Positions 4,906 through 34,708 of a stretch of 40,151 nucleotides of DNA are shown here, one piece after another. Made by a program: the position numbers and the translations under genes. How positions within the stretch are numbered: position 1 is the first letter of the stretch; each line of letters starts with the position of its first letter. The DNA comes from a virus, in IMG/VR virus record IMGVR_UViG_3300045988_085414. The stretch is one strand, 5' to 3'. Below the pieces are notes generated by a model, which ran no database searches, had not been told where the DNA came from, and saw nothing but the letters and a program-made list of their open reading frames with translations.

Positions 4906-4916
4906 CAGCAATAAGG

Positions 4917-4940
4917 GCGGCGGGAAACCGCCGCTTTAAA
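4917..4940 (+). terminator. Hairpin after the capsid gene (gcggcgg-gaaa-ccgccgc, then ttt)
   Basis: 7-bp GC stem with a GAAA loop and only a short T run. Attenuators of this kind are common after major capsid genes. Confidence 0.45.
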
Positions 4941-4953
4941 GGCAGGTGTAACT

Positions 4954-5241
4954 ATGATTGATTTACAAGAGGTAAAAGAGTATTTGCGCGTTGACATTGA
5001 GGAGGACGATCGGTTATTGCAAATGCTTATTACGGCAGCAGTAGAGTATTTGAAAAATGCAACCGGCAAAGAATACCCGGAAAAAGACGAAAAAGGCAAC
5101 GCAATAACTTATGAACTTGAAAAGGTGTATTTAAAATTACTAATTGCCTATTGGTATGAAAACAGAACACCCGCCGGTAAAGTTGGCGAAGAATTTAGCC
5201 AAATGACAAAATCGTTAATGCTGCAATTACAAAATAAGTAG
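4954..5241 (+). CDS. Head-tail connector protein (gp6-like)
   Basis: 95 aa. N-terminal pattern LQEVKEYLRVDIEEDDRLLQMLITAA is typical of gp6-like connectors. Position after the capsid gene fits. Confidence 0.7.
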   Translation: MIDLQEVKEYLRVDIEEDDRLLQMLITAAVEYLKNATGKEYPEKDEKGNAITYELEKVYLKLLIAYWYENRTPAGKVGEEFSQMTKSLMLQLQNK

Positions 5242-5249
5242 GTGGCATT

Positions 5250-5615
5250 ATGGATATAGGACGAACAAATAAAAGGATTACGTTTTGCAGATACGCCGAG
5301 AAACAAAATGAGTTACTACAAACAGAAACGGTTTTAGAAGAAATAAAAACGGTTTGGGCGAGTGTTGAGCCAACAAGGGGCAGAGAGTACCAAGAGGCGC
5401 AGAGAATACGACCGGAATTAACGTATAAAATAACAACGCGGTACCATAAAGAGGTAACGCCGGATATGTTTATTAAATTCAAAGACCGATATTTTCAGAT
5501 TGTTTCTATAATCAACGTCAGAGAACGTAACGAAATGTTAGAAATTGTATGCACCGAAAAATTAACTGAAAATCCGGCGATAGAAAAAATAACATTAAAT
5601 GCGAATGACAAATGA
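5250..5615 (+). CDS. Head closure / head-tail adaptor protein (SPP1 gp16-like)
   Basis: 121 aa, syntenic position. The WASVEP...REY...A...ITTRY pattern resembles head-tail adaptors. Confidence 0.6.
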   Translation: MDIGRTNKRITFCRYAEKQNELLQTETVLEEIKTVWASVEPTRGREYQEAQRIRPELTYKITTRYHKEVTPDMFIKFKDRYFQIVSIINVRERNEMLEIVCTEKLTENPAIEKITLNANDK

Positions 5616-8888: not shown

Positions 8889-8909
8889 CATGTAAAGGAG
8901 AAAATAACC

Positions 8910-9317
8910 ATGAATTTAGTAGAGAAATTATTAGCAGTTGACAAGGGCGAATTTGACAAGATCGAAACAAAGAAGTTAAAGAGCAAACAGTTATCTAAAA
9001 TTGTTGGAGAAGATGCGGAAGTAACAATACAGGCAGTAGACGGCGATCTTTTCGGTGGATTGTCAGCAAGTGGATTAGACGAGGAGGGGGAGGTTGATTA
9101 CGGCAGGGCATTTAGTACAAATGCCAAAATTGCAGCAGCCGGAATTGTCGATCCAAATTTAAAAAATGAGGAACTTTTAAAGCATTTAGGGGTTGCTACA
9201 CCCGCGGACGCAGCAAAAAAGATTTTTAAAGGCGAGATCAACAGAATTTCAACAGAAATCGCAAAGTTAAGCGGTTTCGATGATGAAGAAAAAACAGACA
9301 AAGAAGTAAAAAACTAA
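8910..9317 (+). CDS. Tail assembly chaperone (XkdN-like)
   Basis: 135 aa acidic protein between the tube and tape measure genes. Ends with an in-phase A AAA AAC heptamer. Confidence 0.7.
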   Translation: MNLVEKLLAVDKGEFDKIETKKLKSKQLSKIVGEDAEVTIQAVDGDLFGGLSASGLDEEGEVDYGRAFSTNAKIAAAGIVDPNLKNEELLKHLGVATPADAAKKIFKGEINRISTEIAKLSGFDDEEKTDKEVKN

Positions 9318-9340
9318 TCAAAAGCGATAGGGAGGTACAA

Positions 9341-9502
9341 ATGGATTACCTGCACTATCGCTTTAAAAATTGGAAACCATTTGAATACATGAACCTGCCG
9401 GAAGGACAGAAACGTATAGCGCGGGCGTATATGCGGCAGGAATTGCGCGACAAAGAGGAAAGAAACAAAGAAATAGAAAAAGCCTTCGGAGGAGGTGGTT
9501 GA
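9341..9502 (+). CDS. Small protein (53 aa) between chaperone and tape measure; possibly also the -1 frameshift extension of the chaperone
   Basis: ATG 9341 is preceded by gggagg and translates to MDYLHYRFKNWKPFEYMNLPEGQKRIARAYMRQELRDKEERNKEIEKAFGGGG. It is below the track's size cutoff. Its frame is open back to 9287. Confidence 0.5.
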   Translation: MDYLHYRFKNWKPFEYMNLPEGQKRIARAYMRQELRDKEERNKEIEKAFGGGG

Positions 9503-18006: not shown

Positions 18007-18359
18007 TGGCAAAACCAACAATCAAAGTAGTTGAAAAAAACGAGGGGCGCAAAATCGGTTACGAATTGGAAGGTAGCACCCTATGGATCGGCGATGCGAT
18101 CGCAATGAGATTACCGCGTTTGCAGACAGACGACACCGTTAAAAAAGACATTTGCGCCGATGCAGACGGCAATTTAGTTTTTGGATTGGGCGAAAATTAC
18201 GTTGCACAGGTTGAAATCCCGCCAAAGGAATATGAGTACATCGAGGGAGAGACAGACGCAGAAGGAAAAAAGACCGTTGAAAGAGTGCAGAAAGATTTTG
18301 ACATTTCAAAATGTACTTTAATATTATGGAGCATCGAGGAGGTATATATCAATGAGTAA
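18006..18359 (+). CDS. Hypothetical tail fibre-associated protein
   Basis: 117 aa, start overlaps the upstream stop (TAATG). Its end overlaps the DGR target start by 8 nt. Confidence 0.5.
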   Translation: MAKPTIKVVEKNEGRKIGYELEGSTLWIGDAIAMRLPRLQTDDTVKKDICADADGNLVFGLGENYVAQVEIPPKEYEYIEGETDAEGKKTVERVQKDFDISKCTLILWSIEEVYINE

Positions 18360-19404
18360 TTACGAAGATTTAAGAGGCGCAGCAGCAAACGAGGAAATTA
18401 TTTTAGACGATCAAGGTATTCCTTCGGTAATGGTAAAAGTACCGCTTGTTTATTTGGACGAGTTAGGGATCGGATCGGCACACACGCCGCACCCGGCTTT
18501 TATCATCAACGATAAAGTGGTGCCGTATATTTATGTTTCAAAATATATCAACGTGATCAAGAATAACCGCGCGTACTCTATCCCAAATCAGGATCCTGCA
18601 AACTGCATTACTTTTGATCGTGCGGTTGAGGTTTGTTATAACAAGGGTGCAGGTTGGCATCTTATGACAGCGGCAGAGTGGGGAGTATTACACAACTTAA
18701 TCACAGCACAGGGATTAGAGCCTAGAGGTAACACAAACAACGGCAGGCATCATGTAAAGACTTATGAGCATGGTGTATTAAGTCCGCAGAACCCGACAAA
18801 TGTTTACAGAACATTAACCGGAACCGGCGGCAAGGCATGGGAGGCATTGGGCGTATGCGATATTGTGGGCGACGTTCATAAATGGGTTGTAGCGCGTTTA
18901 GTCGACGGCGAAATTCAGATTGTACCGAACAATAACGCAGCAATCCACAAAACAGATTTAGGCGCAAACAGCAAGGCATGGAAAGCGATCCTGCAGGACG
19001 GTTCATTAGTTGCACCGGGAACAAACGGCACATTAAAGTTTGACTATACCGGAAACCCTGCAAATGCTACAAGTGGTTTTCATATCACAACAACCGTAGA
19101 GCATAAGCAGACAGACGACGGCGCGGGATATGGCGCGAAAGATTTCGGAACATTGACAGCAAAAAGCGGCGTAACAATCCCGGATATTTTAAAAGCATTA
19201 GCGTTATTCCCTAACACAGATAAAACCGGCAGGGGCTTTATATATTTTCGTAACAACGGCGAGCGGTTGCTTATTCGTGGCGGTTCTTATGGTCGTGGCG
19301 GTAGCGCCGGGGAGGCTCTCGGCGATTTCGACTACCCGCGTTCTCTCTCCTATGTGTCTGTGGGGCTGTTTTCCGCTTATGTGGATCCTGCGCTTTATGC
19401 GTAA
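18352..19404 (+). CDS. DGR target protein: receptor-binding tail fibre with an FGE/C-type-lectin-like fold and a C-terminal variable region
   Basis: 350 aa. The central CITFDRAVEVCYNKGAGWHLMTAAEWGVL pattern is FGE-sulfatase/CLec-like. The last 47 codons contain the VR matching the downstream TR. Confidence 0.9.
   Translation: MSNYEDLRGAAANEEIILDDQGIPSVMVKVPLVYLDELGIGSAHTPHPAFIINDKVVPYIYVSKYINVIKNNRAYSIPNQDPANCITFDRAVEVCYNKGAGWHLMTAAEWGVLHNLITAQGLEPRGNTNNGRHHVKTYEHGVLSPQNPTNVYRTLTGTGGKAWEALGVCDIVGDVHKWVVARLVDGEIQIVPNNNAAIHKTDLGANSKAWKAILQDGSLVAPGTNGTLKFDYTGNPANATSGFHITTTVEHKQTDDGAGYGAKDFGTLTAKSGVTIPDILKALALFPNTDKTGRGFIYFRNNGERLLIRGGSYGRGGSAGEALGDFDYPRSLSYVSVGLFSAYVDPALYA
19264..19378 (+). repeat. 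DGR variable repeat (VR)
   Basis: 115 nt, in frame with the target gene, aligning without gaps to 19901-20015. There are 14 mismatches, all opposite TR adenines. Confidence 0.95.
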
Positions 19405-19411
19405 TTCCTGC

Positions 19412-19435
19412 GGGTGTATGCGGCAGCATACGCCC
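19412..19435 (+). promoter_or_regulatory. Hairpin 8 nt downstream of the target stop codon; candidate DGR target-recognition element
   Basis: gggtgtatgc-ggca-gcatacgccc forms a 10-bp stem (one G-T pair) with a 4-nt loop. Confidence 0.6.
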
Positions 19436-19467
19436 TATTTCTGAAAATGACGAGGACATAAAACAAA

Positions 19468-19872
19468 ATGCAAAGAAATTTCAGAGCGACAGCAAAACCA
19501 CCCGAACCCAAAGACGATCTTTTGATTATGAAGAAAACAAGAGAAATGATCGCATACGGTCACGATTGCCTATATAACAAACAATTTCCGAGAAATCAGC
19601 GTATAGGAAACGCGATTGGTGCGCAGATTGAAAAGTCAATGTATGAAATATTAGAAGGTTTATCAGATGCAGCCAAGAAAGAACATAAGAAAACGGCATT
19701 AACGCAGGTTGATGCAAAAATCTATAATCTAAGGCAGCTTTTAATGATTGCCGTAGATCCAAAGATGAATACAAGGGGTGTTCTGATACCGCTTGACGAT
19801 CAACGCAGGTGGTGCGAGAAGTTGGAGGAAATGGGTAAAATTTTAGGTAGTTGGCTTAATAAGCTAAAATAA
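19468..19872 (+). CDS. avd: DGR accessory variability determinant (Avd), four-helix-bundle type
   Basis: 134 aa basic helical protein lying between the target gene and the TR, as in the canonical target-avd-TR-RT order. The start is uncertain; ATG 19528 is an alternative. Confidence 0.75.
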   Translation: MQRNFRATAKPPEPKDDLLIMKKTREMIAYGHDCLYNKQFPRNQRIGNAIGAQIEKSMYEILEGLSDAAKKEHKKTALTQVDAKIYNLRQLLMIAVDPKMNTRGVLIPLDDQRRWCEKLEEMGKILGSWLNKLK

Positions 19873-19900
19873 TAAATCAACTATGGGTAGTATGCCGTAA

Positions 19901-20015
19901 CGGTTGCTTATTCGTGGCGGTAATTATGGTAATGGCGGTAACGCCGGGGAGGCTAACGGCAATTTCAACAACCCGCGTTCTATCTCCAATGTGAATGTGG
20001 GGCTGTTTTCCGCTT
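19901..20015 (+). repeat. DGR template repeat (TR), non-coding, presumably transcribed with the 167-nt spacer up to the RT gene
   Basis: 115 nt with 22 adenines. In the VR-equivalent frame it contains 9 AAY codons. It sits in the avd-RT intergenic region. Confidence 0.95.
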
Positions 20016-20182
20016 TTCTCAATTAGTCAGCATACGCCGCAACACGCGGGCGGCGTACCGTACAGAGAGAAGAAAAGGGGCATATTACCCTGCTTATAGC
20101 AATATGAGCAAAACAAAAATTTCCATGAATACGGTTAGTAACGCAAGCGAAGGGCGTAACGCATGGAGAAATTAAGGTCATA

Positions 20183-21289
20183 ATGAAAAAATTTAACGTA
20201 ACATATGAACAGATCGCAAGTTATAGTAACATCTATGCCGCCTATTTAGATGCACGAAAAGGGAAAAGCGAGCGCAACGAAATAATGCGGTTTTCTTTAG
20301 AACTTGACGCGCATTTAAACGATTTATACAACGACCTGCAGGAGGAGCGTTACAAAGTAAGCGGGTACAGAATTATTTATGTACCAAAGAAACGGCTTAT
20401 TATGGCGTTACAATTTAGGGATCGTGTTTTACAATGGGCGGTTTATAGGCTACTCAATCCGCTATATGAGAAAACCTATATAAAAGATAGTTATGCTTGC
20501 ATCAAAGAAAGAGGCAGAGAAAAAGCAGCCTCCCGGCTGCAATATTGGTTAAGGCAGACAGAAAGAAAGCCAAAACAATATTATTACTTGAAACTTGACA
20601 TTTCAAAATTCTTTTACCGGGTAGATCACGAGGTTTTATTAAACATTTTGAAACGGCGCATAAAAGACAAGCGTTTAATAAAATTGTTTGATAAAATCAT
20701 CAATTCAGAGAAAAGAGCCTTCGGGTTGCCGTTAGGTGTAGATCCTTGCGAGATAGATCCGCGCGAAATGCTTTTCGATAAAGGTATGCCGATCGGTAAT
20801 TTAACAAGTCAGATGTTTGCAAATATCTATATGAATGAGTTAGATCAGTACCTAAAGCATGAATTACATTTAAAATATGTGATACGGTACGCAGACGATT
20901 GTATTATTTTACACGACAGCAAAGAGGAACTATGGCAGGTATTGGAGAAAGTTGAAACTTTCCTGCTTAAAAATCTGAAATTAAACCTAAATAACAAAAC
21001 CGTCATAAGACCAACAACCTGCAATATTGATTTTGTGGGTTATATAATAAACAAAGATGAAATAAGGTTAAGATCCGCAACAGTAAAAAGAATGAGATCC
21101 CGCATAAAGTACATTGTAAAAGCATACGAGCGCGGCGAAATGACCTTGCAGGAAGTCAACGCAACCATGCAAAGCTATTTCGGTTTAATAAAACATTGCA
21201 CAAATGAGGGATTAAGAGAAAACATTATCAACGGTTTTGTGCTGCATTGCACAGATGCAGCGCGAGCCAAAGCAAGAGAAAGCCGATAA
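20183..21289 (+). CDS. DGR reverse transcriptase
   Basis: 368 aa. Carries the DGR-typical motif PIGNLTSQMFANIYMNELD and the catalytic YADD (VIRYADDCIIL). Immediately downstream of the TR. Confidence 0.92.
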   Translation: MKKFNVTYEQIASYSNIYAAYLDARKGKSERNEIMRFSLELDAHLNDLYNDLQEERYKVSGYRIIYVPKKRLIMALQFRDRVLQWAVYRLLNPLYEKTYIKDSYACIKERGREKAASRLQYWLRQTERKPKQYYYLKLDISKFFYRVDHEVLLNILKRRIKDKRLIKLFDKIINSEKRAFGLPLGVDPCEIDPREMLFDKGMPIGNLTSQMFANIYMNELDQYLKHELHLKYVIRYADDCIILHDSKEELWQVLEKVETFLLKNLKLNLNNKTVIRPTTCNIDFVGYIINKDEIRLRSATVKRMRSRIKYIVKAYERGEMTLQEVNATMQSYFGLIKHCTNEGLRENIINGFVLHCTDAARAKARESR

Positions 21290-21899: not shown

Positions 21900-22829
21900 A
21901 TGACAACAGAACAGAAAACATTTATTGAGAACATTGCAGCGGCAGCAAGAAAGCACGCCGCAAATTATGGCATCGCTGTAATTAGTCCAATCATTGCGCA
22001 GGCGATTAACGAAAGCGGGTGGGGAAAGTCAACACTTGCAGCAAAGTACCATAATTATTTCGGTATGAAGTGCGGCAGCGCATGGAAGGGAAAATCTGTA
22101 AATATGTCAACGTGCGAGGAATACGAGGTAGGCGTATTAACGCAGATTAAAGACAATTTCAGAGTTTACGACAGCTTAGAGGAAGGCGTAAAGGGCTATT
22201 TTGATTTTATCAGCGCGAGCCGTTACGCGAATTTAAAAGGTGTTACAGATCCAAAAACATATATTGAGAACATCAAAGCAGACGGTTACGCAACAAGTTC
22301 ACAGTATGTTAAAAACCTGCTTAATTTGGTAAGCGCGTACAATTTAACGCAGTATGATAACATCACAGCACAGCAGGGCAAAAAGAGCGTTGCAGAAATC
22401 GCGCAGGAAGTGATCGCCGGAGCGTGGGGCAATGGCACAGAAAGAAAAGAGAAGTTAGAGGCAGCAGGCTACAATTACGCCGAAGTGCAGGCAATCGTAA
22501 ACGAGCGCGCAGGAAATAAGACAGAAAACAAGGCAGACAACAAAAAGAGTATTGCGGAAATTGCGCAGGAAATTGTAGCCGGTAAGTGGGGTAACGGATC
22601 AGAGAGAAAGCAGCGTTTAGAGGCTGAAGGTTACAACTATGCCGAAGTGCAGGCAGCGGTAAATAATATTATGGGAAAATCGGAGCCAAGCAAAAAGAAT
22701 GTTGCAGAAATCGCAAAAGAGGTAATTTCCGGTAAATGGGGAAATGGATCAGAAAGAAAGCAGCGCTTAGAGGCAGCAGGCTATAATTATGCCGAAGTGC
22801 AGGCAAAGGTCAACGAAATGTTGAGATAA
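21900..22829 (+). CDS. Endolysin: GH73 N-acetylglucosaminidase domain plus three CW_7 cell-wall-binding repeats
   Basis: Start chosen at ATG 21900, behind aaggagga. Catalytic-domain pattern AQAINESGWGKS...YHNYFGMK. Three copies of EIAQEVIxGxWGNGxERKxxLEAAGYNYAEVQA. Confidence 0.9.
   Translation: MTTEQKTFIENIAAAARKHAANYGIAVISPIIAQAINESGWGKSTLAAKYHNYFGMKCGSAWKGKSVNMSTCEEYEVGVLTQIKDNFRVYDSLEEGVKGYFDFISASRYANLKGVTDPKTYIENIKADGYATSSQYVKNLLNLVSAYNLTQYDNITAQQGKKSVAEIAQEVIAGAWGNGTERKEKLEAAGYNYAEVQAIVNERAGNKTENKADNKKSIAEIAQEIVAGKWGNGSERKQRLEAEGYNYAEVQAAVNNIMGKSEPSKKNVAEIAKEVISGKWGNGSERKQRLEAAGYNYAEVQAKVNEMLR
22380..22829 (+). repeat. Three tandem coding repeats (CW_7 modules), starting near 22380, 22542 and 22692
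   Basis: The DNA-level repeat aaaaagaRNRttgcRgaaatYgc... recurs with periods of 162 and 150 nt. Confidence 0.85.
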
Positions 22830-23127: not shown

Positions 23128-23160
23128 GGGGCGTGGCGAAAGTCACGCCCCTTTATTTTT
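23128..23160 (+). terminator. Strong rho-independent terminator ending the structural/lysis operon
   Basis: ggggcgtggc-gaaa-gtcacgcccc (10-bp stem, GNRA loop) followed by tttattttt. Confidence 0.9.
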
Positions 23161-23174: not shown

Positions 23175-23228
23175 ATTTTAAAATATTGCGTAATATGTAT
23201 TGACATATTGCGCAATATGTAATATAAT
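23175..23228 (+). promoter_or_regulatory. Consensus promoter P-A (TTGACA-17-TATAAT) with two 14-bp palindromic operators
   Basis: -35 at 23200-23205 and -10 at 23223-23228. Operators are atattgcgtaatat (23183-23196) and the perfect palindrome atattgcgcaatat (23205-23218). The 45-nt core is identical to 23851-23895. Confidence 0.8.
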
Positions 23229-23850: not shown

Positions 23851-23904
23851 ATTTTAAAATATTGCGTAATATGTATTGACATATTGCGCAATATGCTATA
23901 TAAT
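23851..23904 (+). promoter_or_regulatory. Consensus promoter P-B, a duplicate of P-A with the same two operators
   Basis: -35 at 23876-23881 and -10 at 23899-23904, 17-nt spacer. Operators at 23859-23872 and 23881-23894. Offset is exactly 676 nt from P-A. Confidence 0.8.
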
Positions 23905-24462: not shown

Positions 24463-25497
24463 ATGAGAAGTTTTAAACATATATCATTTAACGATAGATT
24501 AAAAATAGAAGTATTGAGGAAAGCCGGGCATACACCTAAAGAAATCGCGGAAATACTGCATTTTCATATAAGCACAATATACAGAGAGTTAAAACGCGGA
24601 CAATTCGAGGCGTTAAACTCTGATTTGACAACAGAAATAAGATATAGCCCGGATATTGCGCAGGAATACATGAACGGTGTTTTATCGGCAAAAGGCGCAG
24701 ATTTAAAAATAGGAAACGAAAAAGAATTTGCGGATCGCATCGAAGAAATAATAATAAATGAAGGGTACAGCCCGGCGGCTGCATTGGCAAAAGTAAAAGA
24801 GGAAGGAATAGATTTTACAGTATGCGTAACAACTTTATATAGTTATATAGATAAGGGCATATTTTACAACTTGACATTAAAAAACCTGCCGGAAAAGCGC
24901 AAGGGGGAAAAGAAACATAAAAGAAAAACGACACAAAAGAGGGCAACCAAAGGGGAAAGCATCGAAAATAGACCGGAAGAAATAGACACAAGGGAAACCT
25001 TCGGACATTGGGAAATGGATACCGTAGTAGGCGCGCGGGGAGTGTCTAAAAAATCTTTATTGGTTTTAACAGAAAGAAAAACACGCAAAGAGATTATTTT
25101 TTTACTTAAAGAGCATACGGCGGCAGCAGTCGTAAAGGCATTAGACAGATTAGAGAGGAAAACAGGGGCAGCGTTCAGAAAGATTTTTAAAACAATAACG
25201 GTAGATAATGGATCAGAGTTTGCAGATTGGCAAGGAATGGAAAGATCAAAGAGAAACAAAAAGAATAGAACAAAGGTTTATTACTGCCACCCATATAGCA
25301 GTTGGGAACGTGGCAGCAACGAGAACCAAAACAAATTAGTACGCCGCCACATTCCAAAAGGTGTAAATTTTGACGATAAAACACAGGGCGATATAGATAA
25401 TATAGCGGAGTGGATCAATAATTACCCGCGCCGCTTATTCGAGTATCAATCGGCAGAAAAATTATATAATGATGAATTAAAGAAAATTGCAGCTTAA
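24463..25497 (+). mobile_element. IS30-family DDE transposase gene, apparently intact; element ends not resolved
   Basis: 344 aa. N-terminal HTH (PKEIAEILHFHISTIYRELKRG) plus DDE-region hallmarks HWEMDTV, ITVDNGSEF and SWERGSNENQNKLVRRHIPKG. Confidence 0.85.
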
Positions 25498-25686
25498 AAG
25501 AACATCTAAGAAGGCGGCGGTATTCGTGCGCCCATTTTTAAATACACATAACAGCATATCAAGAGCCGGATCCGACACCAACACCCATTAAAAACATATA
25601 ATTATACAATATGCACAAATAAAGTTGCTTTGATATGTGCATATTGCTAAATGTGAAAAAACATGAAAAAACTTTCGCATTAAATG

Positions 25687-25715
25687 TTGACATTTTCATT
25701 GCTAGGTTTTAAAAT
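25687..25715 (+). promoter_or_regulatory. Candidate promoter (TTGACA-17-TAAAAT)
   Basis: -35 at 25687-25692 and -10 at 25710-25715, directly upstream of two terminator-like hairpins. Confidence 0.5.
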
Positions 25716-25717
25716 TA

Positions 25718-25825
25718 AATGCGAAAAGAGTTAATAAAACTCTATCGCATTTATTTTTTTACCTACAAGAAAGTATAGAAAAAATGCGGTTAGAGCGTAA
25801 AAACTCTAACCGCATTTTTATTTTA
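25718..25825 (+). ncRNA. Two tandem terminator-like hairpins: candidate small RNA or attenuator leader
   Basis: Hairpin 1 at 25718-25753 (aaatgcga..gagtt / aactc..tcgcattt). Hairpin 2 at 25781-25818 is a perfect 15-bp stem (aaaatgcggttagag / ctctaaccgcatttt). Each is followed by a T run and then ACC. Confidence 0.4.
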
Positions 25826-25852
25826 CCCATAAACGAGAAGGAGGCGTTGAAA

Positions 25853-26050
25853 GTGAGAAAAGCGTACAAAAAATTAACCTATGCAGACCGTCAAACAATC
25901 GAACACATGACGGAGCAGGGGGCAGAGCCTAAGAAGATCGCGGAAGTGACCGGCGTACATGTAGCAACAATATATAGAGAACTCAAAAAAGGCGCGGACA
26001 CAGAAGGACATTACAAGGCAGAGTTAGCGCAGCAGGCGTTATTTGTATAA
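25853..26050 (+). CDS. HTH-only protein resembling the N-terminal DNA-binding domain of IS30 transposases
   Basis: GTG 25853 lies 8 nt after gaaggagg. LTYADRQTIEHMTEQGAEPKKIAEVTGVHVATIYRELKKG parallels residues 8-46 of the 24463 transposase. No DDE domain follows. Confidence 0.6.
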   Translation: MRKAYKKLTYADRQTIEHMTEQGAEPKKIAEVTGVHVATIYRELKKGADTEGHYKAELAQQALFV

Positions 26051-26070
26051 AGGCGGCAAAGGTCGCCCAT

Positions 26071-26143
26071 GCGCTTTTAATTTAAAGGGATAGAATACCA
26101 CCCTCCGAAGGTGGCGGTGCGGGTTCAATTCCCGCCGGGCGCA
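26071..26143 (+). tRNA. tRNA-Arg(CCG)-like cloverleaf with a weak acceptor stem
   Basis: Folded by hand. The anticodon arm is ccacc-ctCCGaa-ggtgg and the T arm is gcggg-ttcaatt-cccgc. The D arm is attt/gaat with GGG in the loop. U8 and U33 are present. The acceptor stem gcgcttt/cgggcgc has 4 Watson-Crick pairs, 2 G-U pairs and 1 mismatch. No CCA is encoded. Confidence 0.55.
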
Positions 26144-26148
26144 TTTGT

Positions 26149-26597: not shown

Positions 26598-27335
26598 TTG
26601 GGTTATTTTAAAACCACAGTAAGAGCAGGAGCCACGATTGAAGTAACAAAGAGTTATACAAAGAGGATCGGGGTAAAGATAAAAAAGGATAGGGAAAAGC
26701 CAACAGCCGAGGAAATGGAAAAGGTTAATCAAATGAACGCAGAGAGAACCCTCCGGCTAAAGATCAATGCTAATTTTGGAGTAGATGATCCATTTATCAC
26801 ATTGACATACAGGAAAGACGAAAGACCAACACCAAAGCAGGCAAAGAAAAATATTAAAAAAGTAATAGACAGCTTGCGAAAAGAGTTTAAAAAGTTGGGC
26901 GCAGATCTGAAATATATCAATGTGACGGAATATAAAAATAAAGCTATACATCATCATTTATTGATTAACCATATTGAAGGGCAGGACGTTTCTAAAATGG
27001 TTCGCAGATTGTGGAAGTTTGGCAGACCGGATTTTAAGTATTTGGACGATACCGGACAATATAAGGATTTGGCGGCGTACCTCATAAAAGAAACATCAAA
27101 GACCTACAAAGAGAACGACGGAGGGCATAAGCAAAGATACAGTTGCAGCCGCAATTTGATAATGCCAACACCAAAGACAGAAATTATAAAAAAGGCGCAA
27201 AGGTGGGCAGCAGATCCAAAACCGATAAAAGGCTATTACATCGACAAAGACACAGTATATAACGGTGTGGATCCGTTTACCGGTAGAGAATACCAAAAAT
27301 ATACAATGGTTCGGCTATCCGGTAGCGGTGGTTAA
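26598..27335 (+). CDS. HUH-superfamily rolling-circle replication initiator (Rep)
   Basis: 245 aa with a TTG start. All three motifs are present: motif I FITLTY, motif II (HUH) IHHHLLIN, and motif III AAYLIKETSK (Y..K). Confidence 0.8.
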   Translation: MGYFKTTVRAGATIEVTKSYTKRIGVKIKKDREKPTAEEMEKVNQMNAERTLRLKINANFGVDDPFITLTYRKDERPTPKQAKKNIKKVIDSLRKEFKKLGADLKYINVTEYKNKAIHHHLLINHIEGQDVSKMVRRLWKFGRPDFKYLDDTGQYKDLAAYLIKETSKTYKENDGGHKQRYSCSRNLIMPTPKTEIIKKAQRWAADPKPIKGYYIDKDTVYNGVDPFTGREYQKYTMVRLSGSGG

Positions 27336-27408: not shown

Positions 27409-27909
27409 GTGGATAAATTGAACGTAAGCATATACATAAAAAGCAGTTTCAGAGGCAACCCAAGAGGCGCAGGAGAGGCAGCGGCGGTTATTGAGTTTAT
27501 AGACAAGCAAGGGAAAAGCCACAAGCGGCAGCAGCGCACACAGATAGAGGCAGACACGAAAAACGCCCTGCACTTAAAAATTTGCATCGCAGCGATGCGG
27601 GTATTATTAAAGCCTTGCGATATAACCGTTTTTATTGATTGCGACTATATGGCAAACGCCTGCAGGTTGGGTTGGTTGGACAAGTGGCAGCAGGACGGTT
27701 GGAAGAAAGCAAACGGAAAGCCACCGGCGAATGTTGAGGAATGGAAACAATTTTATATGCTAATGCAGATCCACACCGTAACATTTGAAAAATACAACAA
27801 CCGGTACGACACCGAGTTAGAGAAAATCATAGGAGGCGAAAATGAAGTACATGGGATCGAAAGCGAAGATCACAAAGTACATAGTGCCGATTATTCAACG
27901 AAAAATTGA
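27409..27909 (+). CDS. RNase HI-like protein with a degenerate active site
   Basis: Hand alignment to E. coli RNase HI. The GNPRGAG and DGWKKANGKPPANVEEW blocks are conserved. The D10 position is K (IYIKSS), the E48 position is H (TKNALHL), and the D70 position is retained (IDCDY). The start is uncertain (GTG 27409 or TTG 27418). Confidence 0.65.
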   Translation: MDKLNVSIYIKSSFRGNPRGAGEAAAVIEFIDKQGKSHKRQQRTQIEADTKNALHLKICIAAMRVLLKPCDITVFIDCDYMANACRLGWLDKWQQDGWKKANGKPPANVEEWKQFYMLMQIHTVTFEKYNNRYDTELEKIIGGENEVHGIESEDHKVHSADYSTKN

Positions 27910-28585
27910 CGAAAGCGGCGCGCGGTATTATGTGGAACCGTTCGCGGGCGGCTGCAATGTGATAGACAAGATAAAAGCAGAATACCGCATTGCATCAGAT
28001 AGCAATAAATATTTAATTGCGTTATTCCAACACTTGCAGGACGGCGGCGAATTGCCGGAACATATCACACGCGAAGAATATAACAAAGCGCGTGAGGCAT
28101 ACAGAACCGGAGATAACAGCCTGCAGGCGTGGTACATTGGCGCGGTTGGTTTCCTTGCATCATATAACGGCAGATTTTACGACGGCGGTTATGCGGGATA
28201 TGGAAAAGACAAAGGCAGGGTAAGGGATTATTACAGAGAAAGCCGCAATAACATTTTAATGCAGATGCAGCAGGGCGGTATATTCGGTATTGATTTCAGT
28301 TGTAGAGATTATAAAAGCTATACGCCGCAGGGCTGCGTTATATATTGCGATCCACCCTATGAGGGTACAAAAAAATACGGCAATGCAAAAGATTTTGATT
28401 ATTTGGAATTTTGGGAAACGATGCGGAAATGGAGCCGCCACAACAACATAGTTTTAATTTCGGAGTTACAAGCACCGGACGATTTTATAACAATTTGGGA
28501 AAAGGAGGTAGATCGCAGTATGAAAGCAAAAGAGCATTTCAGAGCGACAGAAAAATTATTTATGTGGGGGGGTAACGGTAAATGA
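27842..28585 (+). CDS. dam: Dam-family (D12 class) DNA N6-adenine methyltransferase
   Basis: MKYMGSKAKI N-terminus, SAM-binding motif EPFAGGCNV and catalytic DPPY (YCDPPYEG). Confidence 0.88.
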   Translation: MKYMGSKAKITKYIVPIIQRKIDESGARYYVEPFAGGCNVIDKIKAEYRIASDSNKYLIALFQHLQDGGELPEHITREEYNKAREAYRTGDNSLQAWYIGAVGFLASYNGRFYDGGYAGYGKDKGRVRDYYRESRNNILMQMQQGGIFGIDFSCRDYKSYTPQGCVIYCDPPYEGTKKYGNAKDFDYLEFWETMRKWSRHNNIVLISELQAPDDFITIWEKEVDRSMKAKEHFRATEKLFMWGGNGK

Positions 28586-29064
28586 TTAAGCGAGGCGACA
28601 TTTATTTTATTCGTGATACCCGCCAAAGCATCGGCAGCGAGCAGAAAGCAGACAGACCTGCGGTTATTGTTTCAAACGATGCAAATAACAAGCATAGCGG
28701 CGTTTATGAAGTTGTCTATATGACGACACAGCCGAAAACAGACCTGCCAACACATTTTATAACAAGTTCCGCGTTGAGAACATCAACCGTATTGTGCGAG
28801 CAGATAAGCAGCGTTTACGAGGAACGGATCGGCGAATGGATCGGAACACTCACACCGGAAGAAATGAAACAGCTTGACGAGTGTTTAACGGTATCGGTTG
28901 GCATAAATACAAAGGCAGAAAAAGAGCCTGCGGAAATGGAAAGCCTGCGGCAGCAGTTGGCAGAAATGGCAGACCGGCAGCAGGTAGCAGAAAAGCAGGC
29001 GAAAACATATAAAGAAATGTATGAGTTTCTTTTAAGTAAACAGTTAGGAACGAAAGGAAAATGA
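28582..29064 (+). CDS. MazF/PemK-family endoribonuclease toxin homologue with a ~50-aa coiled-coil C-terminal extension
   Basis: RGDIYFI...GSEQKADRPAVIVSND...VVYMTTQ...STVLCEQISSV...IGTLTPEEMKQLDECL follows the PemK/MazF pattern. ATGA overlaps link it to both neighbouring methyltransferase genes. Confidence 0.75.
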   Translation: MIKRGDIYFIRDTRQSIGSEQKADRPAVIVSNDANNKHSGVYEVVYMTTQPKTDLPTHFITSSALRTSTVLCEQISSVYEERIGEWIGTLTPEEMKQLDECLTVSVGINTKAEKEPAEMESLRQQLAEMADRQQVAEKQAKTYKEMYEFLLSKQLGTKGK

Positions 29065-30050
29065 TAAAAATACTTGAATTATTCGGAGGCATTGGTTCGC
29101 CACGATGCGCCCTTCGTAATATTGGAATACCGGTAAAGGCTATTGATTATGTGGAGATAGACGAAAAAGCGGTAAGATCGTACAATGCAATGTTTAAAAA
29201 CGAATTAGCATATAAAACGCAATCGGTCATAGGTTGGGATCTTAAACCGGATATTTTAATACATGGTTCGCCCTGCCAAGATTTTAGCATCGCCGGGCAT
29301 CAAGGAAAGGCAACAGCGGCAGCAGGAAGGATCAACAAAGGAAAAGGCGCAGACGAGGGATCGGGAACACGATCGAGCCTTATGTGGGAAACAATACACA
29401 TTATACAGCAAATGGGAGATTGGAAACCGCGTTTTGTTATTTGGGAGAATGTAAAAAATGTCACATCAAAACACATGATACATAACTTTAACCGTTATTT
29501 ATCAGAAATGCAGAAATTAGGATATACAAATAGTTTTCAAACATTAGATGCGCGCGATTTCGGATTACCGCAAGCAAGAGAACGAGTTTTTACAATATCT
29601 GTATTAAACGGCGAACCGTTCAATTTTGACGATTTAATAAAAACAGAAATGCGCGACATATCGGAATATTTAGAAAAGGACGTATCAGAAGTTTACGCAG
29701 TGACACAACCAAGCGTTTACAACGCAATAGGCAAAAAAGGAATACGCAGGGCGACGGTTATTAAAGATTATGCCTATACAATTACGGCAAGGCAGGATAG
29801 AACACCGGCACAGGTTATTGACTTAGGCGGTGGCAAATACAGGTATTTAACAGAACGTGAATGTTGGAGATTGCAAGGGTATAGCGACGCAGATTTTGAG
29901 GCGGCGGCAGCAGTACAGAAGAAAAACGGACGTTACACAATGGCATTATACAAGCAAGCGGGTAACAGCATACCGGTAACAATTTTTGAAAGTATTTTCA
30001 GAAAAATAATTTTAGGAGAAACAGCAGAAAAGGAGGCAAGCAATGAATAG
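29061..30050 (+). CDS. dcm: DNA cytosine-5 methyltransferase
   Basis: Motif I LELFGGIGS, motif IV GSPCQDFS, motif VI ENVKN, and C-terminal QAGNSIP. Confidence 0.9.
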   Translation: MIKILELFGGIGSPRCALRNIGIPVKAIDYVEIDEKAVRSYNAMFKNELAYKTQSVIGWDLKPDILIHGSPCQDFSIAGHQGKATAAAGRINKGKGADEGSGTRSSLMWETIHIIQQMGDWKPRFVIWENVKNVTSKHMIHNFNRYLSEMQKLGYTNSFQTLDARDFGLPQARERVFTISVLNGEPFNFDDLIKTEMRDISEYLEKDVSEVYAVTQPSVYNAIGKKGIRRATVIKDYAYTITARQDRTPAQVIDLGGGKYRYLTERECWRLQGYSDADFEAAAAVQKKNGRYTMALYKQAGNSIPVTIFESIFRKIILGETAEKEASNE

Positions 30051-30531
30051 CGTACACTTTAGCACCGGGAAGGACGATTGGGGAACACCGCAGGATCTTT
30101 TCGATGCACTCAATGAAGAATTTAACTTTACATTGGATCCATGCGCAGACAATAACAACCATAAATGCGCAAAGTATTACACCATAGAGCAGGACGGTTT
30201 GGCGCAGTCATGGGCGGGCGAAACGGTATTTTGCAACCCGCCGTACAGCAGAAAAACAAAAACAAACGCCGGTCAAATTGCATGGGTGCAAAAATGTTAC
30301 AAAGAGGCAACCGAGGGGGGGATCGTCGTGGTTATGCTTATACCCGCCCGAACAGATACGATCATGTTTCACGATTACATTTTAGGAAAAGCAGAAATAC
30401 GATTTATCAAAGGGCGTGTTAATTTTGAAATAGACGGACAGAAAAGCAAGGATCCGGCACCATTCCCAAGCATGATCGTAGTATTTAACGGAAAGCAGCC
30501 AACAAGTGCAGTAAAAAGCATTACAGCATAG
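30043..30531 (+). CDS. Phage-type DNA N6-adenine methyltransferase (small Dam_MT family)
   Basis: STGKDDWGTPQDLFDALNEEFNFTLDPCA followed by the catalytic NPPY (FCNPPYSR). Confidence 0.8.
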   Translation: MNSVHFSTGKDDWGTPQDLFDALNEEFNFTLDPCADNNNHKCAKYYTIEQDGLAQSWAGETVFCNPPYSRKTKTNAGQIAWVQKCYKEATEGGIVVVMLIPARTDTIMFHDYILGKAEIRFIKGRVNFEIDGQKSKDPAPFPSMIVVFNGKQPTSAVKSITA

Positions 30532-31301: not shown

Positions 31302-31598
31302 ATGGCATTAACTGAATTAGTAAACGCCCTCCGGCAGCAGGCAATAAAGCAGCGGGAAAGAGAGGGCGAGCTATTAAACAACATTGCATATTTAGCAGGT
31401 TTAGAAACAGCAGAGGCAGCAGCCGACATATACGCAGCCGAGAAACACGCATATTCATTTGACGGCTATTTATATCAGCTTGAAAAGTTAAAAACGGTAT
31501 TAGCTGCAGGCGTACCGTCTGAAATAGCATTAGAGGCGGTAGATAGTTGCGCCGATGCAGACGCGATAATTAAATATTACAGAGGAGGCACAGCATGA
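31302..31598 (+). CDS. Hypothetical protein
   Basis: 98 aa ORF behind aggaggc. Overlaps the ssb start by 4 nt. Confidence 0.5.
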   Translation: MALTELVNALRQQAIKQREREGELLNNIAYLAGLETAEAAADIYAAEKHAYSFDGYLYQLEKLKTVLAAGVPSEIALEAVDSCADADAIIKYYRGGTA

Positions 31599-31993
31599 AT
31601 AAATGTATTTTCATGGGGCGTTTAACGAGAGATCCCGAAATACGTTATACGCAGAGCGAAAAGCCGGTTGCGGTTATAAATTACACATTGGCGGTTGACA
31701 GAAGATATAAAAGAGAGGGCGAGCCTTCGGCGGATTTTATAAATTTTGTAGCATACGGCGCAGCCGCCGAGTTTGCAGAGAAATATTTTAAGAAAGGCAC
31801 AAAGTTAGTAGTAGTCGCACGCTGCCAAACGAGAACATACACAAACAACGAGGGCAAGAAAGTTTATGTTACGGAATTTATCATAGAGGATCAAGAGTTC
31901 GCGGAAAGCAAGAGGGCAGCAGGCGGCGAACCGGAAACGGAAAAAGACGGTTTTATGCAGATGCCGGAAGGCGAAGAATTACCGTTTAACTAG
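31595..31993 (+). CDS. ssb: Single-stranded DNA-binding protein
   Basis: OB-fold pattern NKCIFMGRLTRDPEIRYT...ADFINFVAYGAAAEFAEKYFKKGTKLVV and an acidic C-terminal tip EGEELPFN. Confidence 0.9.
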   Translation: MNKCIFMGRLTRDPEIRYTQSEKPVAVINYTLAVDRRYKREGEPSADFINFVAYGAAAEFAEKYFKKGTKLVVVARCQTRTYTNNEGKKVYVTEFIIEDQEFAESKRAAGGEPETEKDGFMQMPEGEELPFN

Positions 31994-32281: not shown

Positions 32282-33106
32282 ATGCAAACAATTTCAATCA
32301 TCAGCTTAAAAGGTGGCGTAGCAAAGACCACGACAGCCGTAAACATGGCGTACACGTTGGCAGCAGTACATAACAAGAAAGTTTTAATTATCGACAATGA
32401 CAAGCAGGGGAACACATCAAAGGCGTTTAAGAAGTACGACACAGAGGACAAAAACACCGTTGCGCGCATGATGTTAGAAAGAAATATTGATGTATCGGAA
32501 ATAATCAAAAAAACAGATTACGAAAACATCGACATTATAACCGCGAATATGGATTTATTAGAGGCAAACTTGCGAACTATTGTAGATACCGGCAGGCAGC
32601 AGCAGACGAGATTTAAAAAGGCATTGAGTAACAGCAAGGTTTTAGATCATGGTTGGGCGAAATTCGACTATTTACCACTTACAGAGGCATACGATTATTG
32701 CATCATAGATAACGCGCCCGATATTAACATGAGTATCATTAACGCCCTTGTAACGTCAAACGATGTAATAGTACCGGTATTTATGGATCAATACTCTTTT
32801 GACGGCTTAGACATTCTTATGGAGCAAATCGCACAGGTGCAGGAAGATTTTAACGAGAACTTACATTTTGCAGGGTGCGTCATTACACAGTATCAAAACA
32901 ACGATGTAAACAATCAAGGAATAGAATGGTTAAAGGCGCATAATGTACCGGTATTTAACCAATGGATCCGCAGGACGGAAAAGAAAGTAAACGAAAGCAC
33001 ATTTGCAAAAATGCCGCTTGTGGAATATTCCGTAAGATGCGGAGCCGCACAGGATTATAAAAAATTCGTATTGGAATATTTGGAGGGCGAAGATGCAGAA
33101 AATTAA
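32282..33106 (+). CDS. parA: ParA/Soj-family partition ATPase
   Basis: Deviant Walker A ISLKGGVAKTTTAVNMA and Walker A' VLIIDNDKQGN. Confidence 0.88.
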   Translation: MQTISIISLKGGVAKTTTAVNMAYTLAAVHNKKVLIIDNDKQGNTSKAFKKYDTEDKNTVARMMLERNIDVSEIIKKTDYENIDIITANMDLLEANLRTIVDTGRQQQTRFKKALSNSKVLDHGWAKFDYLPLTEAYDYCIIDNAPDINMSIINALVTSNDVIVPVFMDQYSFDGLDILMEQIAQVQEDFNENLHFAGCVITQYQNNDVNNQGIEWLKAHNVPVFNQWIRRTEKKVNESTFAKMPLVEYSVRCGAAQDYKKFVLEYLEGEDAEN

Positions 33107-33296
33107 GTTTAAAGCGAAATGCCCTTATGAGATAGGCGACAAGATCCAATTTGAGAAGGGCGGCAAAACGCAGACAATGGACGTAACGGACATTATAACG
33201 CAGGTAAGTGCCAAAACCGGCGACATAACATTTATTTTAGAGTTGGACGGTTGGTATAAGCTGAACGCCAAATTACACGATGTAAAAATACCGTAA
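33093..33296 (+). CDS. Hypothetical small protein between parA and parB
   Basis: 67 aa ORF overlapping the parA end. Confidence 0.45.
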   Translation: MQKIKFKAKCPYEIGDKIQFEKGGKTQTMDVTDIITQVSAKTGDITFILELDGWYKLNAKLHDVKIP

Positions 33297-33346
33297 CGCC
33301 TAGTATTTACTAGACGATACCCAATTTAGGTACAAGGAGGCACGCA

Positions 33347-34708
33347 ATGGGATTTGACATTAACAATTTTTTAAATGCCGAAAGCAAAAAAGAGGTAAAG
33401 AGCGATTGGAAACCGGTTAAATTGAGCGTACATAAATTAAGACCGGCAGCAGGTAAAGAAAATTTCTACCACATGGACGATAAAGAGATCGAGGAAACCG
33501 CCCGCACGATTGAGTTAGTAGGCATACAGCAATACCCGGTTGTAAAACCGATACCGGGTACCGATGAATACGAGATTATAGCCGGGCATAAAAGAAGGCT
33601 TGCAATATTAAAACTAATTGCAGAGGGTAAAACAGAGTATGAAATGATCCCTTGCAAAATCGAAACGGCAGAGGATAGCATAAAAAACCGGTTGATTTTG
33701 ATTTTTACCAATTCAACGCAGCGTGAAAGAACCGATTACGAAAAGATGCAGGAAATAAAAGAGGTTCGGCAGCTTTTGGAAGAATGGCAGAAAGATAATA
33801 AAATACCGGGAAAGATGCAAAATGTAATTGCTGATTTTTTGGGAACAAACAAAACAAAAATAGGAACATTGGAACACATAGACAGCAAGTTAATAGAACC
33901 GTTTAAGGCTGAATTTGCAGCGGGAAAGATAAGTACAAACGCCGCAAACGAAATAGCAGGATTAGACGAGGCAGCGCAGCAGGTGTTATACGACACATAC
34001 AAAGAAACCGGATCATTAACCGCAAAAGAAGTTAAGACGGTAAAAGAACCGGAAAAGCCACAGGAACAGACCACAGAACAGCCAAAAGAGGCAGAAACGA
34101 AAGAAACACCGAAGGAACCGGAAAAAGCCGGAAATGAGGCGCAGGACGAGCCACAGCAGCATATTACAACCGAACCGGAAACAAAAATAACATACAATGC
34201 ACCTGCACCGGATAATACAGATCGCGCAAGCCTTATTATTAACGGCAAAATCAATATGAACAAAGAATATAACGGTATGCGGATTATGTATTTCATGGAG
34301 GCGATTTTAAGCCCCGATCTATTCGATAGCAATTTTTGGAAAGGTTGGAAAGAGAACACCGGCGCAAAATGGGAGTATATCGCAGATTACGCAGGGTTAA
34401 ATACACCGTTTGTATTCAAAGGATCGGAGCCGGAACAATGCACAGCGGTTTTAACAAACGAAGGGTTAGAGGTTGCAAGACTAAAAGCCGGGCAGCAGGC
34501 GTTATTGATTTACGACGATTTAGCGGAACTTATAGATCTTATGATCTACACGAAAGTAATTGAGATAACAGAAATTGAAAGCGACTTGAAATATTGGGCG
34601 AACCGCACAGCGAAAGAATTAGTTTCGGTTAGTAATTACTTGACGGAAAGCGAAATTTATATATTGCAGGATCTTATGATGAAATGCAAGGAAAGAGCAG
34701 GTAAATAA
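33347..34708 (+). CDS. parB: ParB-like (ParB/Srx N-terminal domain) protein with a P/E/K/T-rich linker and an unknown C-terminal domain
   Basis: GIQQYPVVKPIPGTDEYEIIAGHKRRLAILKL matches the ParB box. 453 aa. Confidence 0.8.
   Translation: MGFDINNFLNAESKKEVKSDWKPVKLSVHKLRPAAGKENFYHMDDKEIEETARTIELVGIQQYPVVKPIPGTDEYEIIAGHKRRLAILKLIAEGKTEYEMIPCKIETAEDSIKNRLILIFTNSTQRERTDYEKMQEIKEVRQLLEEWQKDNKIPGKMQNVIADFLGTNKTKIGTLEHIDSKLIEPFKAEFAAGKISTNAANEIAGLDEAAQQVLYDTYKETGSLTAKEVKTVKEPEKPQEQTTEQPKEAETKETPKEPEKAGNEAQDEPQQHITTEPETKITYNAPAPDNTDRASLIINGKINMNKEYNGMRIMYFMEAILSPDLFDSNFWKGWKENTGAKWEYIADYAGLNTPFVFKGSEPEQCTAVLTNEGLEVARLKAGQQALLIYDDLAELIDLMIYTKVIEITEIESDLKYWANRTAKELVSVSNYLTESEIYILQDLMMKCKERAGK

Follow-up and report, generated by a model that had tools for sequence, protein, structure and literature searches.

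The 40,151-nucleotide viral sequence IMGVR_UViG_3300045988_085414 from IMG/VR, referred to here as the window, is essentially the complete, ~40-kb genome of a temperate phage of gut Clostridia with every gene on the + strand. In the middle of its replication genes lies a gene for a protein of 160 amino acids that has the MazF fold, belongs to the MazF family and carries a conserved C-terminal tail which is predicted to be helical. MazF toxins are textbook partners of MazE antitoxins. The gene studied here, however, has no cognate antitoxin gene next to it and, as we read it, is not one half of a type II toxin-antitoxin pair. Our preferred reading, which we hold tentatively, is that the protein would be a MazF-type endoribonuclease of the lytic cycle that needs no antitoxin, and that its tail would serve as an oligomerisation or partner-binding helix. 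The gene is composed of the following parts, where pLDDT is the per-residue confidence of the AlphaFold2 model:

28582-29064, + strand: gene of the long-form MazF/PemK-like protein, a probable endoribonuclease, 160 amino acids (PF02452, E = 3.3e-22; phrog_1936, E = 2.5e-35)
28582-28899, + strand: MazF core, residues 1-106 (motif conservation; confident AlphaFold2 core)
28654-28656, + strand: codon AGA of the predicted catalytic Arg25 (alignment with MazF)
28723-28725, + strand: codon ACG of the predicted catalytic Thr48 (alignment with MazF)
28900-28989, + strand: hinge and variable linker, residues 107-136 (pLDDT below 50 at residues 112-114; mildly acidic, helical)
28990-29046, + strand: conserved terminal motif E137-KQAKT-Y143-KEM-Y147-EF-L150-L-SKQ-L155 (homologue alignments)

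A first-pass annotation, made from the letters alone, had called the protein MazF/PemK-like, and a search with hidden Markov models bears this out: residues 3-104 align to profile positions 1-107 of 109 of PF02452 with a score of 79.2 bits against a cut-off of 23.1 bits. Among solved structures, MazF of S. aureus and MazF of B. subtilis come closest by sequence, with E about 1e-14 to 1e-13. The AlphaFold2 model, for which 60 sequences were aligned, is confident for residues 1-106, and Foldseek superimposes this core, an SH3-like barrel with a C-terminal helix, on the structures 4OF1, 4MZM and 4MDX with E about 1e-10, template modelling (TM) scores of 0.82-0.85 (normalised to the target), a root-mean-square deviation (rmsd) of 2.2 Å and 34-37% sequence identity. 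Arg25 is invariant in all three homologue alignments (46-60 diverse sequences), while Thr48, without exception in the alignment of 46 sequences, reaches a conservation of at least 90% in each of the remaining ones. The GSEQ, PTH and CEQ motifs, which are common to the MazF proteins of Bacillus and Staphylococcus, are likewise invariant or nearly so across the 46-60 diverse homologues. The fold together with the conservation of Arg25, Thr48 and these motifs thus identifies the protein as a MazF family member, which is very probably an active endoribonuclease.

The extension of about 50 residues (~107-160) which the first-pass annotation had pointed out is real. AlphaFold2 predicts one single helix from residue 117 to 158 with pLDDT values of 78-88, and the tail is conserved in hundreds of homologues, which indicates that it is a trait of the family and not a peculiarity of the window phage. 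Its two parts differ. Across the family the linker is rich in insertions and deletions, ranges from 8 to 88 residues (median 34) and has a net charge of about -3, whereas the charge-neutral terminal motif, with the family consensus E-[TK]-[EQ]-[RA]-D-T-Y-K-E-[ML]-Y-E-x-L-L-x-[KR]-x-L, is retained down to 36-45% identity of the core. Hereby, conservation amounts to 98-100% for Y147, 91% for L150, 84% for Y143 and 81% for K144. When 274 distinct tails are anchored on the motif, hydrophobic residues recur at positions -33, -29, -24, -21, -17, -14, -10/-9, -7, 0, 3/4, 7/8 and 11/12, i.e. in a heptad-like 3-4-3-4 register over ~45 residues in which the linker is in phase with the terminal motif, and the spectral power peaks at a period of 3.5-4.0.

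Neither the tail alone nor a profile of 43 tail sequences yields a significant match among the solved chains of the PDB; the best of the weak profile matches are coiled-coil dimerisation segments, namely the EB1 segment 'LEKERDFY' and Maf zippers (E 0.03-0.16). A candidate resemblance of TYKEMYEFLL in the tail to the helix GYMEMAKINL of B. subtilis MazE, whose sequence was confirmed against 4ME7_E, was rejected, with an hhalign probability of 0.1% and negative sequence and profile searches of the PDB. The tail is also unlike the canonical MazE partners found beside distant relatives, which end in DWGEPxGxE[VI]W. The AlphaFold2 model of the full-length monomer reaches a predicted TM score (pTM) of 0.58. 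In the models of long phage PemK-like proteins in BFVD, tail regions align only at an rmsd of 7.6-16 Å and with TM scores no better than those of the core alone, and no reproducible docked geometry of the tail is found across the AlphaFold2 and BFVD monomer models.

We also considered whether the tail is a portable module or the product of a split gene. In a six-frame motif scan of all related loci (1.5 Mb) it occurs only on MazF-like cores; in three apparently 'split' cases (L082, L114, L124) the motif follows closely behind the core in a different frame, which is a frameshift or sequencing error, and one further case is a second paralogue. A membrane-targeting helix was rejected on inspection, given the charge-neutral motif with its conserved acidic residues. 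One homologue (P0006) appears to be a fusion of a MazF-like protein through K144, the second residue of Y143-L155, with the last ~60 residues of a C5 methyltransferase, which leaves little of either the terminal motif or the methyltransferase.

The search for an antitoxin covered 152 related loci, 80 of which came from IMG/VR and 69 of which were taken from genomes in GTDB; almost without exception they belong to Clostridia-type gut taxa. They were reduced to 74 representatives at 85% identity; 49 of the 74 are tail-bearing according to a regular expression, and several representatives classed as tail-less by this expression are in fact misses of the expression or frameshifts. As the first-pass annotation had stated, no MazE-like open reading frame (ORF) lies on either side of the toxin homologue or inside the overlaps with its neighbours, and the ORFs of at least 30 amino acids that overlap the gene in the window are shadow ORFs only, in other frames or antisense. 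Pfam searches detected no MazE, PemI, AbrB or RHH domain in the 28 upstream or 32 downstream tightly linked neighbours of the tail-bearing representatives. A hidden antitoxin ORF was rejected as well: in an all-against-all comparison of ORFs of at least 30 amino acids on both strands within 1.2 kb of the gene, no family occurs in more than 13 of the 74 loci, apart from antisense shadow ORFs, which recur in the majority of loci simply opposite the conserved mazF-like gene itself. That the approach can recognise an antitoxin is shown by the short relatives at the greatest distance (L147, L151), where a MazE_antitoxin gene (PF04014, E about 1e-13) overlaps the toxin homologue from upstream. The small upstream ORFs of short relatives are mutually unrelated. 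Several relatives that lack the tail or carry a truncated one (the L003 type, L089/L017 and L107) keep both Arg25 and Thr48 and are again without a recognisable antitoxin; the L003 type is found in many Heliusvirales phages, and its clade in at least ten complete phages.

The protein is not undescribed but belongs to phrog_1936, 'MazF-like growth inhibitor', whose profile takes in the tail (residues 1-156 on profile positions 8-182 of 188). The category assigned to it by PHROGs is 'moron, auxiliary metabolic gene and host takeover', and NCBI labels it 'type II TA system PemK/MazF family toxin'. With the window protein as query, 663 clusters at 90% identity were retrieved. When 1.84 billion representatives were searched exhaustively, 1,655 clusters at 50% identity had E values below 1e-10. 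Among the closest 145 new representatives listed in the latter search the median length is 178 amino acids, and 72 of the 145 match a loose form of the tail motif. The hosts seen are Clostridiaceae, Lachnospiraceae, Oscillospiraceae, Christensenellaceae and Faecalibacterium. Lactobacillus phages of ~140 kb and Heliusvirales phages carry short homologues, here too without recognisable antitoxins. The long form, an architecture shared by thousands of proteins from gut phages and prophages, is a large, uncharacterised phage family, although already catalogued as such. Full-text searches of the literature yielded no description in which the conserved tail is combined with a consistently missing antitoxin and with this genomic setting, and phrog_1936 itself appeared in the searchable literature only as an annotation label.

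Two further architectures were seen among the relatives. Tandem MazF-MazF proteins on a single chain of 235-287 amino acids, without the tail motif, are represented by P0245, P0283, P0288, P0292, P0327, P0353, P0374, P0380 and P0401; in several of them one domain seems, by eye, to lack the catalytic Arg, so that they may be pseudo-dimers with one active site. A Clostridia contig from a metagenome-assembled genome (L109), probably a prophage, contains two divergent tail-bearing MazF-like paralogues (4992-5483 and 8901-9461) ~3.4 kb apart. The second of these is without the GSEQ loop, and heterodimers are conceivable.

According to the reading we prefer, the gene product would be a catalytically competent MazF-family endoribonuclease for single-stranded RNA, made from the replication and DNA-modification (early/middle) transcript along with ribonuclease (RNase) H, three anti-restriction methyltransferases, SSB and ParAB. 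A dedicated antitoxin may be missing because the enzyme would be meant to act in lytic growth, where its targets would be the RNA of the host, possibly also that of the phage, and its purpose the shut-off of the host or the processing of transcripts. The tail, predicted to be a clade-defining long amphipathic helix of the coiled-coil type, would most likely join MazF dimers or bind a conserved partner, and this oligomerisation or partner binding may tune the activity or the targeting of the enzyme. The reading draws on the position of the gene in the operon, the PHROGs category, the short homologues in the ~140-kb Lactobacillus phages and the variety of replication-type neighbours across lineages (Rep, SSB, ParB_N, methyltransferases, RtcB, dUTPase, primase, a PAPS-reductase-like protein and DUF7768). 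It also draws on the viral contig L054, in which the gene of an RtcB RNA ligase (3752-4960; PF01139, E = 2.5e-60) precedes that of a MazF-like protein with tail at a distance of 40 nt. RtcB seals the 2',3'-cyclic-phosphate and 5'-OH ends left by MazF, and its presence next to the gene would thus fit real RNA cleavage. The first-pass annotation had listed, as one of three options, a host-takeover ribonuclease co-expressed with anti-restriction methylation, which comes close to this reading; the addiction role that it had coupled to this option is not supported.

Several observations weigh against the lytic ribonuclease. The sequence UACAU, the site of Bacillus and Staphylococcus MazF, is neither avoided nor enriched on the coding strand of the phage (44 observed vs 46 expected), so that self-avoidance of this site was rejected and there is no sign that the phage shields its own transcripts from a UACAU-specific enzyme. 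Moreover, a 99% identical copy of the MazF-like gene is found within a 2.17-Mb contig, called chromosomal, of Clostridiaceae bacterium Marseille-Q4145 (L084), from which it follows that the phage is temperate; leaky expression in a lysogen would be harmful unless the ribonuclease were restrained, for which reason self-inhibition and an unlinked antitoxin still have to be considered. The periodicity of the tail is slightly higher at a period of 4.0 than at 3.5, so that a helix packing onto a surface fits as well as a canonical coiled coil, and the strong conservation of the polar residues K144, E148 and K153 suggests a specific docking surface. Finally, a methyltransferase is the immediate upstream neighbour in 8 of 46 representatives compared to 2.9% of surrounding genes (binomial p about 5e-5), an enrichment over background which nonetheless stems from just two lineages.

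Among the alternatives, a toxin and antitoxin on a single chain is unlikely but has the most to be said for it. Here, the terminal helix would fold onto the RNA-binding groove of its own or a neighbouring dimer and keep the ribonuclease off until it is released by proteolysis, by a phage or host protein or by superinfection, with a logic comparable to CapRel(SJ46) and EzeT; in a variant, the tails would lock dimers in an inactive coiled-coil oligomer until a specific cue arrives. Such a switch would account for the absence of an antitoxin gene although the catalytic residues are invariant, and a ligand on a tether would be expected to look like this, with a mildly acidic linker of variable length in front of a strongly conserved helix at the end. 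The confinement of the tail to MazF-like cores and its absence from the canonical MazE-paired relatives point the same way, and a temperate phage would profit from the safeguard. Yet the tail profile resembles neither Bacillus-type MazE nor the DWGEPxGxEVW motif and matches no solved chain, the terminal motif is neutral in charge and not acidic, the monomer model has a pTM of 0.58 and the independent viral models place the tail inconsistently. Tail-less relatives with Arg25 and Thr48 persist without antitoxins, and the gene sits in a lytic-type operon with overlapping neighbours instead of at the moron position usual for defence genes. The fused antitoxin-like tail, another option of the first-pass annotation, is thus left without positive support: it shows no similarity to MazE of the E. 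coli or the Bacillus type and no reproducible docking in monomer models, and phage relatives without it that keep the catalytic residues have no recognisable antitoxin, either. Neutralisation of a conventional toxin in trans, by a host MazE-family antitoxin, a phage protein encoded elsewhere or an adjacent methyltransferase, is in our view distinctly unlikely. Cross-neutralisation by a host MazE is conceivable since fold and motifs of the core are close to those of chromosomal Firmicutes MazF, translational coupling to methyltransferases in two lineages would provide a fixed stoichiometry, and phages are reported to encode MazF modulators, in the arbitrium/phi3T study. Within 1.2 kb, however, no gene co-occurs with the family in more than 13 of the 74 loci, 34 of 49 representatives have no methyltransferase within 5 kb, the two lineages with one employ unrelated families (D12 and N6_N4), and with so many host genera, a phage toxin could hardly rely on an antitoxin supplied by the host.

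Expression in the lysogen, with the protein acting as a prophage defence or superinfection-exclusion effector or as a plasmid-prophage addiction toxin, is improbable. The temperate element with its ParA, ParB and Rep proteins is phage-plasmid-like, and MazF-family toxins are known abortive-infection effectors. Against this, the MazF-like protein matches no defence-system family in PADLOC-DB (the methyltransferases match generic Type II and orphan methyltransferase models), and homologues occur in the large (~140 kb) Lactobacillus phages. In consensus scans the gene has no promoter or terminator of its own, and it overlaps both neighbours inside the replication block. Regarding addiction in particular, there is no gene for an unstable antitoxin, and an inhibitor that is covalently fused is argued to be unable to give post-segregational killing; partition genes were checked in a minority of the relatives. 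Still less probable, and indeed very improbable, is a protein that has kept the MazF fold without catalysis and works as a nucleic-acid- or protein-binding adaptor. The core is slightly acidic on average (net charge about -2.7), which is unusual for an RNA-binding toxin, the MazF model of NCBIfam scores it at 35.6 bits, far under its cut-off of 120, and MazF-like folds with non-nuclease roles are reported, e.g. CalpT of the CRISPR-Lon system. The invariance of Arg25, Thr48, GSEQ, PTH and CEQ over thousands of sequences is nevertheless hard to explain without catalysis.

The MazF-like gene is the second in a chain of four overlapping genes, preceded by the gene of RNase H:

27409-27909, + strand: RNase H (PF00075, E = 7.4e-12; phrog_531, E = 5.8e-22)
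27842-28585, + strand: D12-class (Dam-family) N6-adenine DNA methyltransferase, 247 amino acids (PF02086, E = 1.8e-16; phrog_56, E = 1.3e-36)
29061-30050, + strand: C5 cytosine DNA methyltransferase, 329 amino acids (PF00145, E = 8.8e-50)
30043-30531, + strand: small phage-type N6-adenine methyltransferase, 162 amino acids (PF05869 Dam, E = 3.9e-32; phrog_111, E = 6.1e-61; PADLOC orphan methyltransferase, E = 8.6e-52)

These ORFs lie where the first-pass annotation had put them. As claimed, the genes are joined by ATGA overlaps at the first and second junctions and share 8 nt at the third, and the family assignments of all four genes were upheld by Pfam profile searches, with PHROGs, NCBIfam and PADLOC concurring on the methyltransferases. 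Upstream of each of the four starts a Shine-Dalgarno-like purine run can be read from the sequence. The RNase H ORF overlaps the D12 methyltransferase ORF by 68 nt (27842-27909), so that the chain exceeds four genes and would be part of a long transcription unit of the replication module. The start of the D12 methyltransferase cannot be moved far downstream because its conserved N-terminal Y-x-G-S-K motif begins at residue 3.

The proposed module of methyltransferase, MazF and two further methyltransferases, in contrast, is not conserved: the full order is restricted to the sub-lineage of the window (L084, L086, L087, L015). In these four loci the D12 methyltransferase, the MazF-like gene and the C5 methyltransferase follow one another with the same 4-nt overlaps; compared to the window, the C5 methyltransferase of L086, L087 and L015 is 90-92% identical and the MazF-like protein 74-75%. 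In L085, L014, L088 and L013, genes other than the C5 methyltransferase come after the MazF-like gene. The eight cases with an upstream methyltransferase fall into two lineages, the window sub-lineage with D12 and the FP_Lagaffe sub-lineage with N6_N4, in both of which stop and start codons overlap at the junction with the MazF-like gene, while only 1 of 47 representatives has a methyltransferase immediately downstream. Among the 28 linked upstream neighbours, Pfam recognises ParB_N in five (some fused to ASCH/DUF3850), a D12 methyltransferase in five, an N6_N4 methyltransferase in three and RtcB in one. The 32 downstream neighbours comprise DUF7768 in four and FGE-sulfatase-like proteins in three, next to single cases of a C5 methyltransferase, SSB, dUTPase, D5 primase and a PAPS-reductase-like protein. 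The DUF7768 and DUF3850/ASCH genes that flank the MazF-like gene in other phages are located elsewhere in the window, at 35175 and 35690. The methyltransferases thus belong to a mosaic replication and DNA-modification island with shuffled gene order and not to a dedicated methyltransferase-toxin module; that they flank the MazF-like gene is best explained by synteny and not by a functional partnership, and the framing as a three-methyltransferase operon is not the interesting part.

The avoidance of restriction sites in the window as a whole is extreme. GGCC is absent from the window (0 observed vs 85 expected), as are GANTC and CCWGG, and GGNCC occurs once. Of the non-palindromic sites, GGATG/CATCC are counted 1/0, GAAGC/GCTTC 1/0 and GGTGA/TCACC 0/1, and about 20 six-base palindromes are missing. 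GATC (185 vs 107 expected, z = +9) and CCGG (204 vs 164), in turn, are enriched. We take these strong word depletions, by their counts, as avoidance of restriction sites at the DNA level, and the retained sites suggest that the Dam-type and C5 methyltransferases may protect GATC and CCGG. Some depletions on the + strand are asymmetric, i.e. CTTGG (0 vs 18 expected) compared to CCAAG (20 vs 23) and GCCAT (0 vs 14) compared to ATGGC (51 vs 46); possible causes are an orientation bias against Type III-like systems, codon effects and avoidance at the RNA level.

The remaining features of the window place the chain within the replication block:

Left end, + strand: large terminase, followed by structural genes
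20183, + strand: reverse transcriptase
21813, + strand: endolysin
23128-23151, + strand: strong hairpin resembling an intrinsic terminator (10-bp stem with 8 GC pairs, then a T-run), closing the late/lysis block
23200-23228, + strand: perfect-consensus sigma-70-type promoter, TTGACA-17-TATAAT (consensus match only)
23876-23904, + strand: second perfect-consensus sigma-70-type promoter (consensus match only)
24463, + strand: IS30-type transposase
25687-25715, + strand: 11/12 promoter match (consensus match only)
26070, + strand: tRNA-Arg
26598-27335, + strand: replication initiator of the Rep ORF2/G2P type, which opens the replication block and is followed by RNase H and the four-gene chain (PF23343, E = 7.8e-20; phrog_3584, E = 6.7e-53)
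31595-31993, + strand: SSB, in the remainder of the replication/partition block
32282-33106, + strand: ParA, in the same block
33347-34708, + strand: ParB-like protein, in the same block
Right part, + strand: HNH endonuclease, then small terminase (39156)

The promoters at 23200, 23876 and 25687 are candidates for the source of the replication-module transcript. From ~26.0 to 35 kb the consensus scan of the + strand returned no comparable promoter or terminator, nor, as weak evidence, a promoter-like site directly upstream of 28582. By these scans for consensus sites, the four genes would therefore be transcribed as part of a single long RNA of the replication module.

With its rolling-circle-type Rep (26598-27335) and the ParA and ParB-like proteins (32282-34708) the genome is phage-plasmid-like, yet the L084 copy resides in a chromosomal contig of 2.17 Mb. 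Neither a tyrosine nor a serine integrase is encoded in the ~30 window ORFs scanned, so that the IS30-family DDE transposase (HTH_38 and rve), which is encoded within 24463-26144 between the lysis genes and Rep, may serve integration. A separate ORF of 88 amino acids with HTH_38 only (25784-26050) and tRNA-Arg(CCG) at 26070-26144 are found in the same interval. A megablast search of the region against GenBank phages gave no near-identical match.

Outside the replication block, the window contains a complete diversity-generating retroelement (18352-21289) with a variable repeat at 19264-19378, a template repeat at 19901-20015 and a reverse transcriptase at 20183-21289 that matches phrog_1423 (E = 7e-128). 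The two 115-nt repeats are 88% identical, with all mismatches at adenines of the template copy, and the variable repeat is located at the 3' end of an ORF of 350 amino acids (18352-19404) among the tail genes. Three tandem repeats of 139-150 nt with 72-76% identity (22379-22829), which are probably cell-wall-binding, lie towards the 3' end of the endolysin gene.

The clade is organised differently from the textbook pair of toxin and antitoxin. It comprises at least 3,199 clusters at 90% identity, retrieved with the family profile as query, and is phage-borne and antitoxin-less; among the ~150 representatives closest to the window protein the long form prevails almost throughout, and about half of these ~150 have a tail motif that can be recognised as the conserved helical one. 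Should the protein be an unrestrained ribonuclease of the lytic cycle, it would be a common host-takeover tool of phages of human-gut Clostridia, and its cleavage motif would be worth knowing. If the tail regulates activity, this would be a new mode of control of a MazF nuclease, and if the single-chain switch were true, the MazF family would have its first example of a fused protein that neutralises itself, a regulatory device widespread in gut Clostridia phages with thousands of sequences. As to annotation, such genes should not be called 'type II TA system toxins', and translational coupling to adjoining methyltransferases does not by itself mean a functional module.

Among known systems, the MazF/EndoA proteins of S. 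aureus and B. subtilis (4MZM, 4OF1, 4MDX, 1NE8; PF02452) share the fold, Arg25 and Thr48 and the GSEQ, PTH and (L/C)EQ motifs with the window protein. They are encoded in a chromosomal two-gene operon, whereas the window gene is located inside a phage replication operon, lacks an upstream MazE gene and codes for ~50 additional C-terminal residues in the form of a conserved helix. Within phrog_1936, gp50 of the Faecalibacterium phage FP_Lagaffe is 47% identical, has the tail motif and overlaps an upstream methyltransferase gene by 4 nt. This methyltransferase, however, belongs to the N6_N4 family, and gp50 is followed not by a C5 methyltransferase but by DUF7768, which carries the annotation nucleoside deoxyribosyltransferase. 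Gp83 of FP_Brigit is the second example from a named Faecalibacterium phage. CapRel SJ46 and EzeT likewise combine a toxin domain and a C-terminal extension in one polypeptide without a separate antitoxin gene, but their extensions are folded domains that occlude the active site, in contrast to the single predicted helix of the window protein, which shows no reproducible docking in the monomer models, and the window gene is not at a defence-island or moron position. A functional analogy may be seen in RegB of phage T4, an early, sequence-specific endoribonuclease with a RelE/YoeB-like toxin fold that acts on mRNAs during infection. RegB has no C-terminal coiled-coil tail, and its fold belongs to an unrelated family, RelE-like and not MazF-like, but like the protein described here it is a toxin-fold protein, in its case a ribonuclease, which a phage encodes without an antitoxin.

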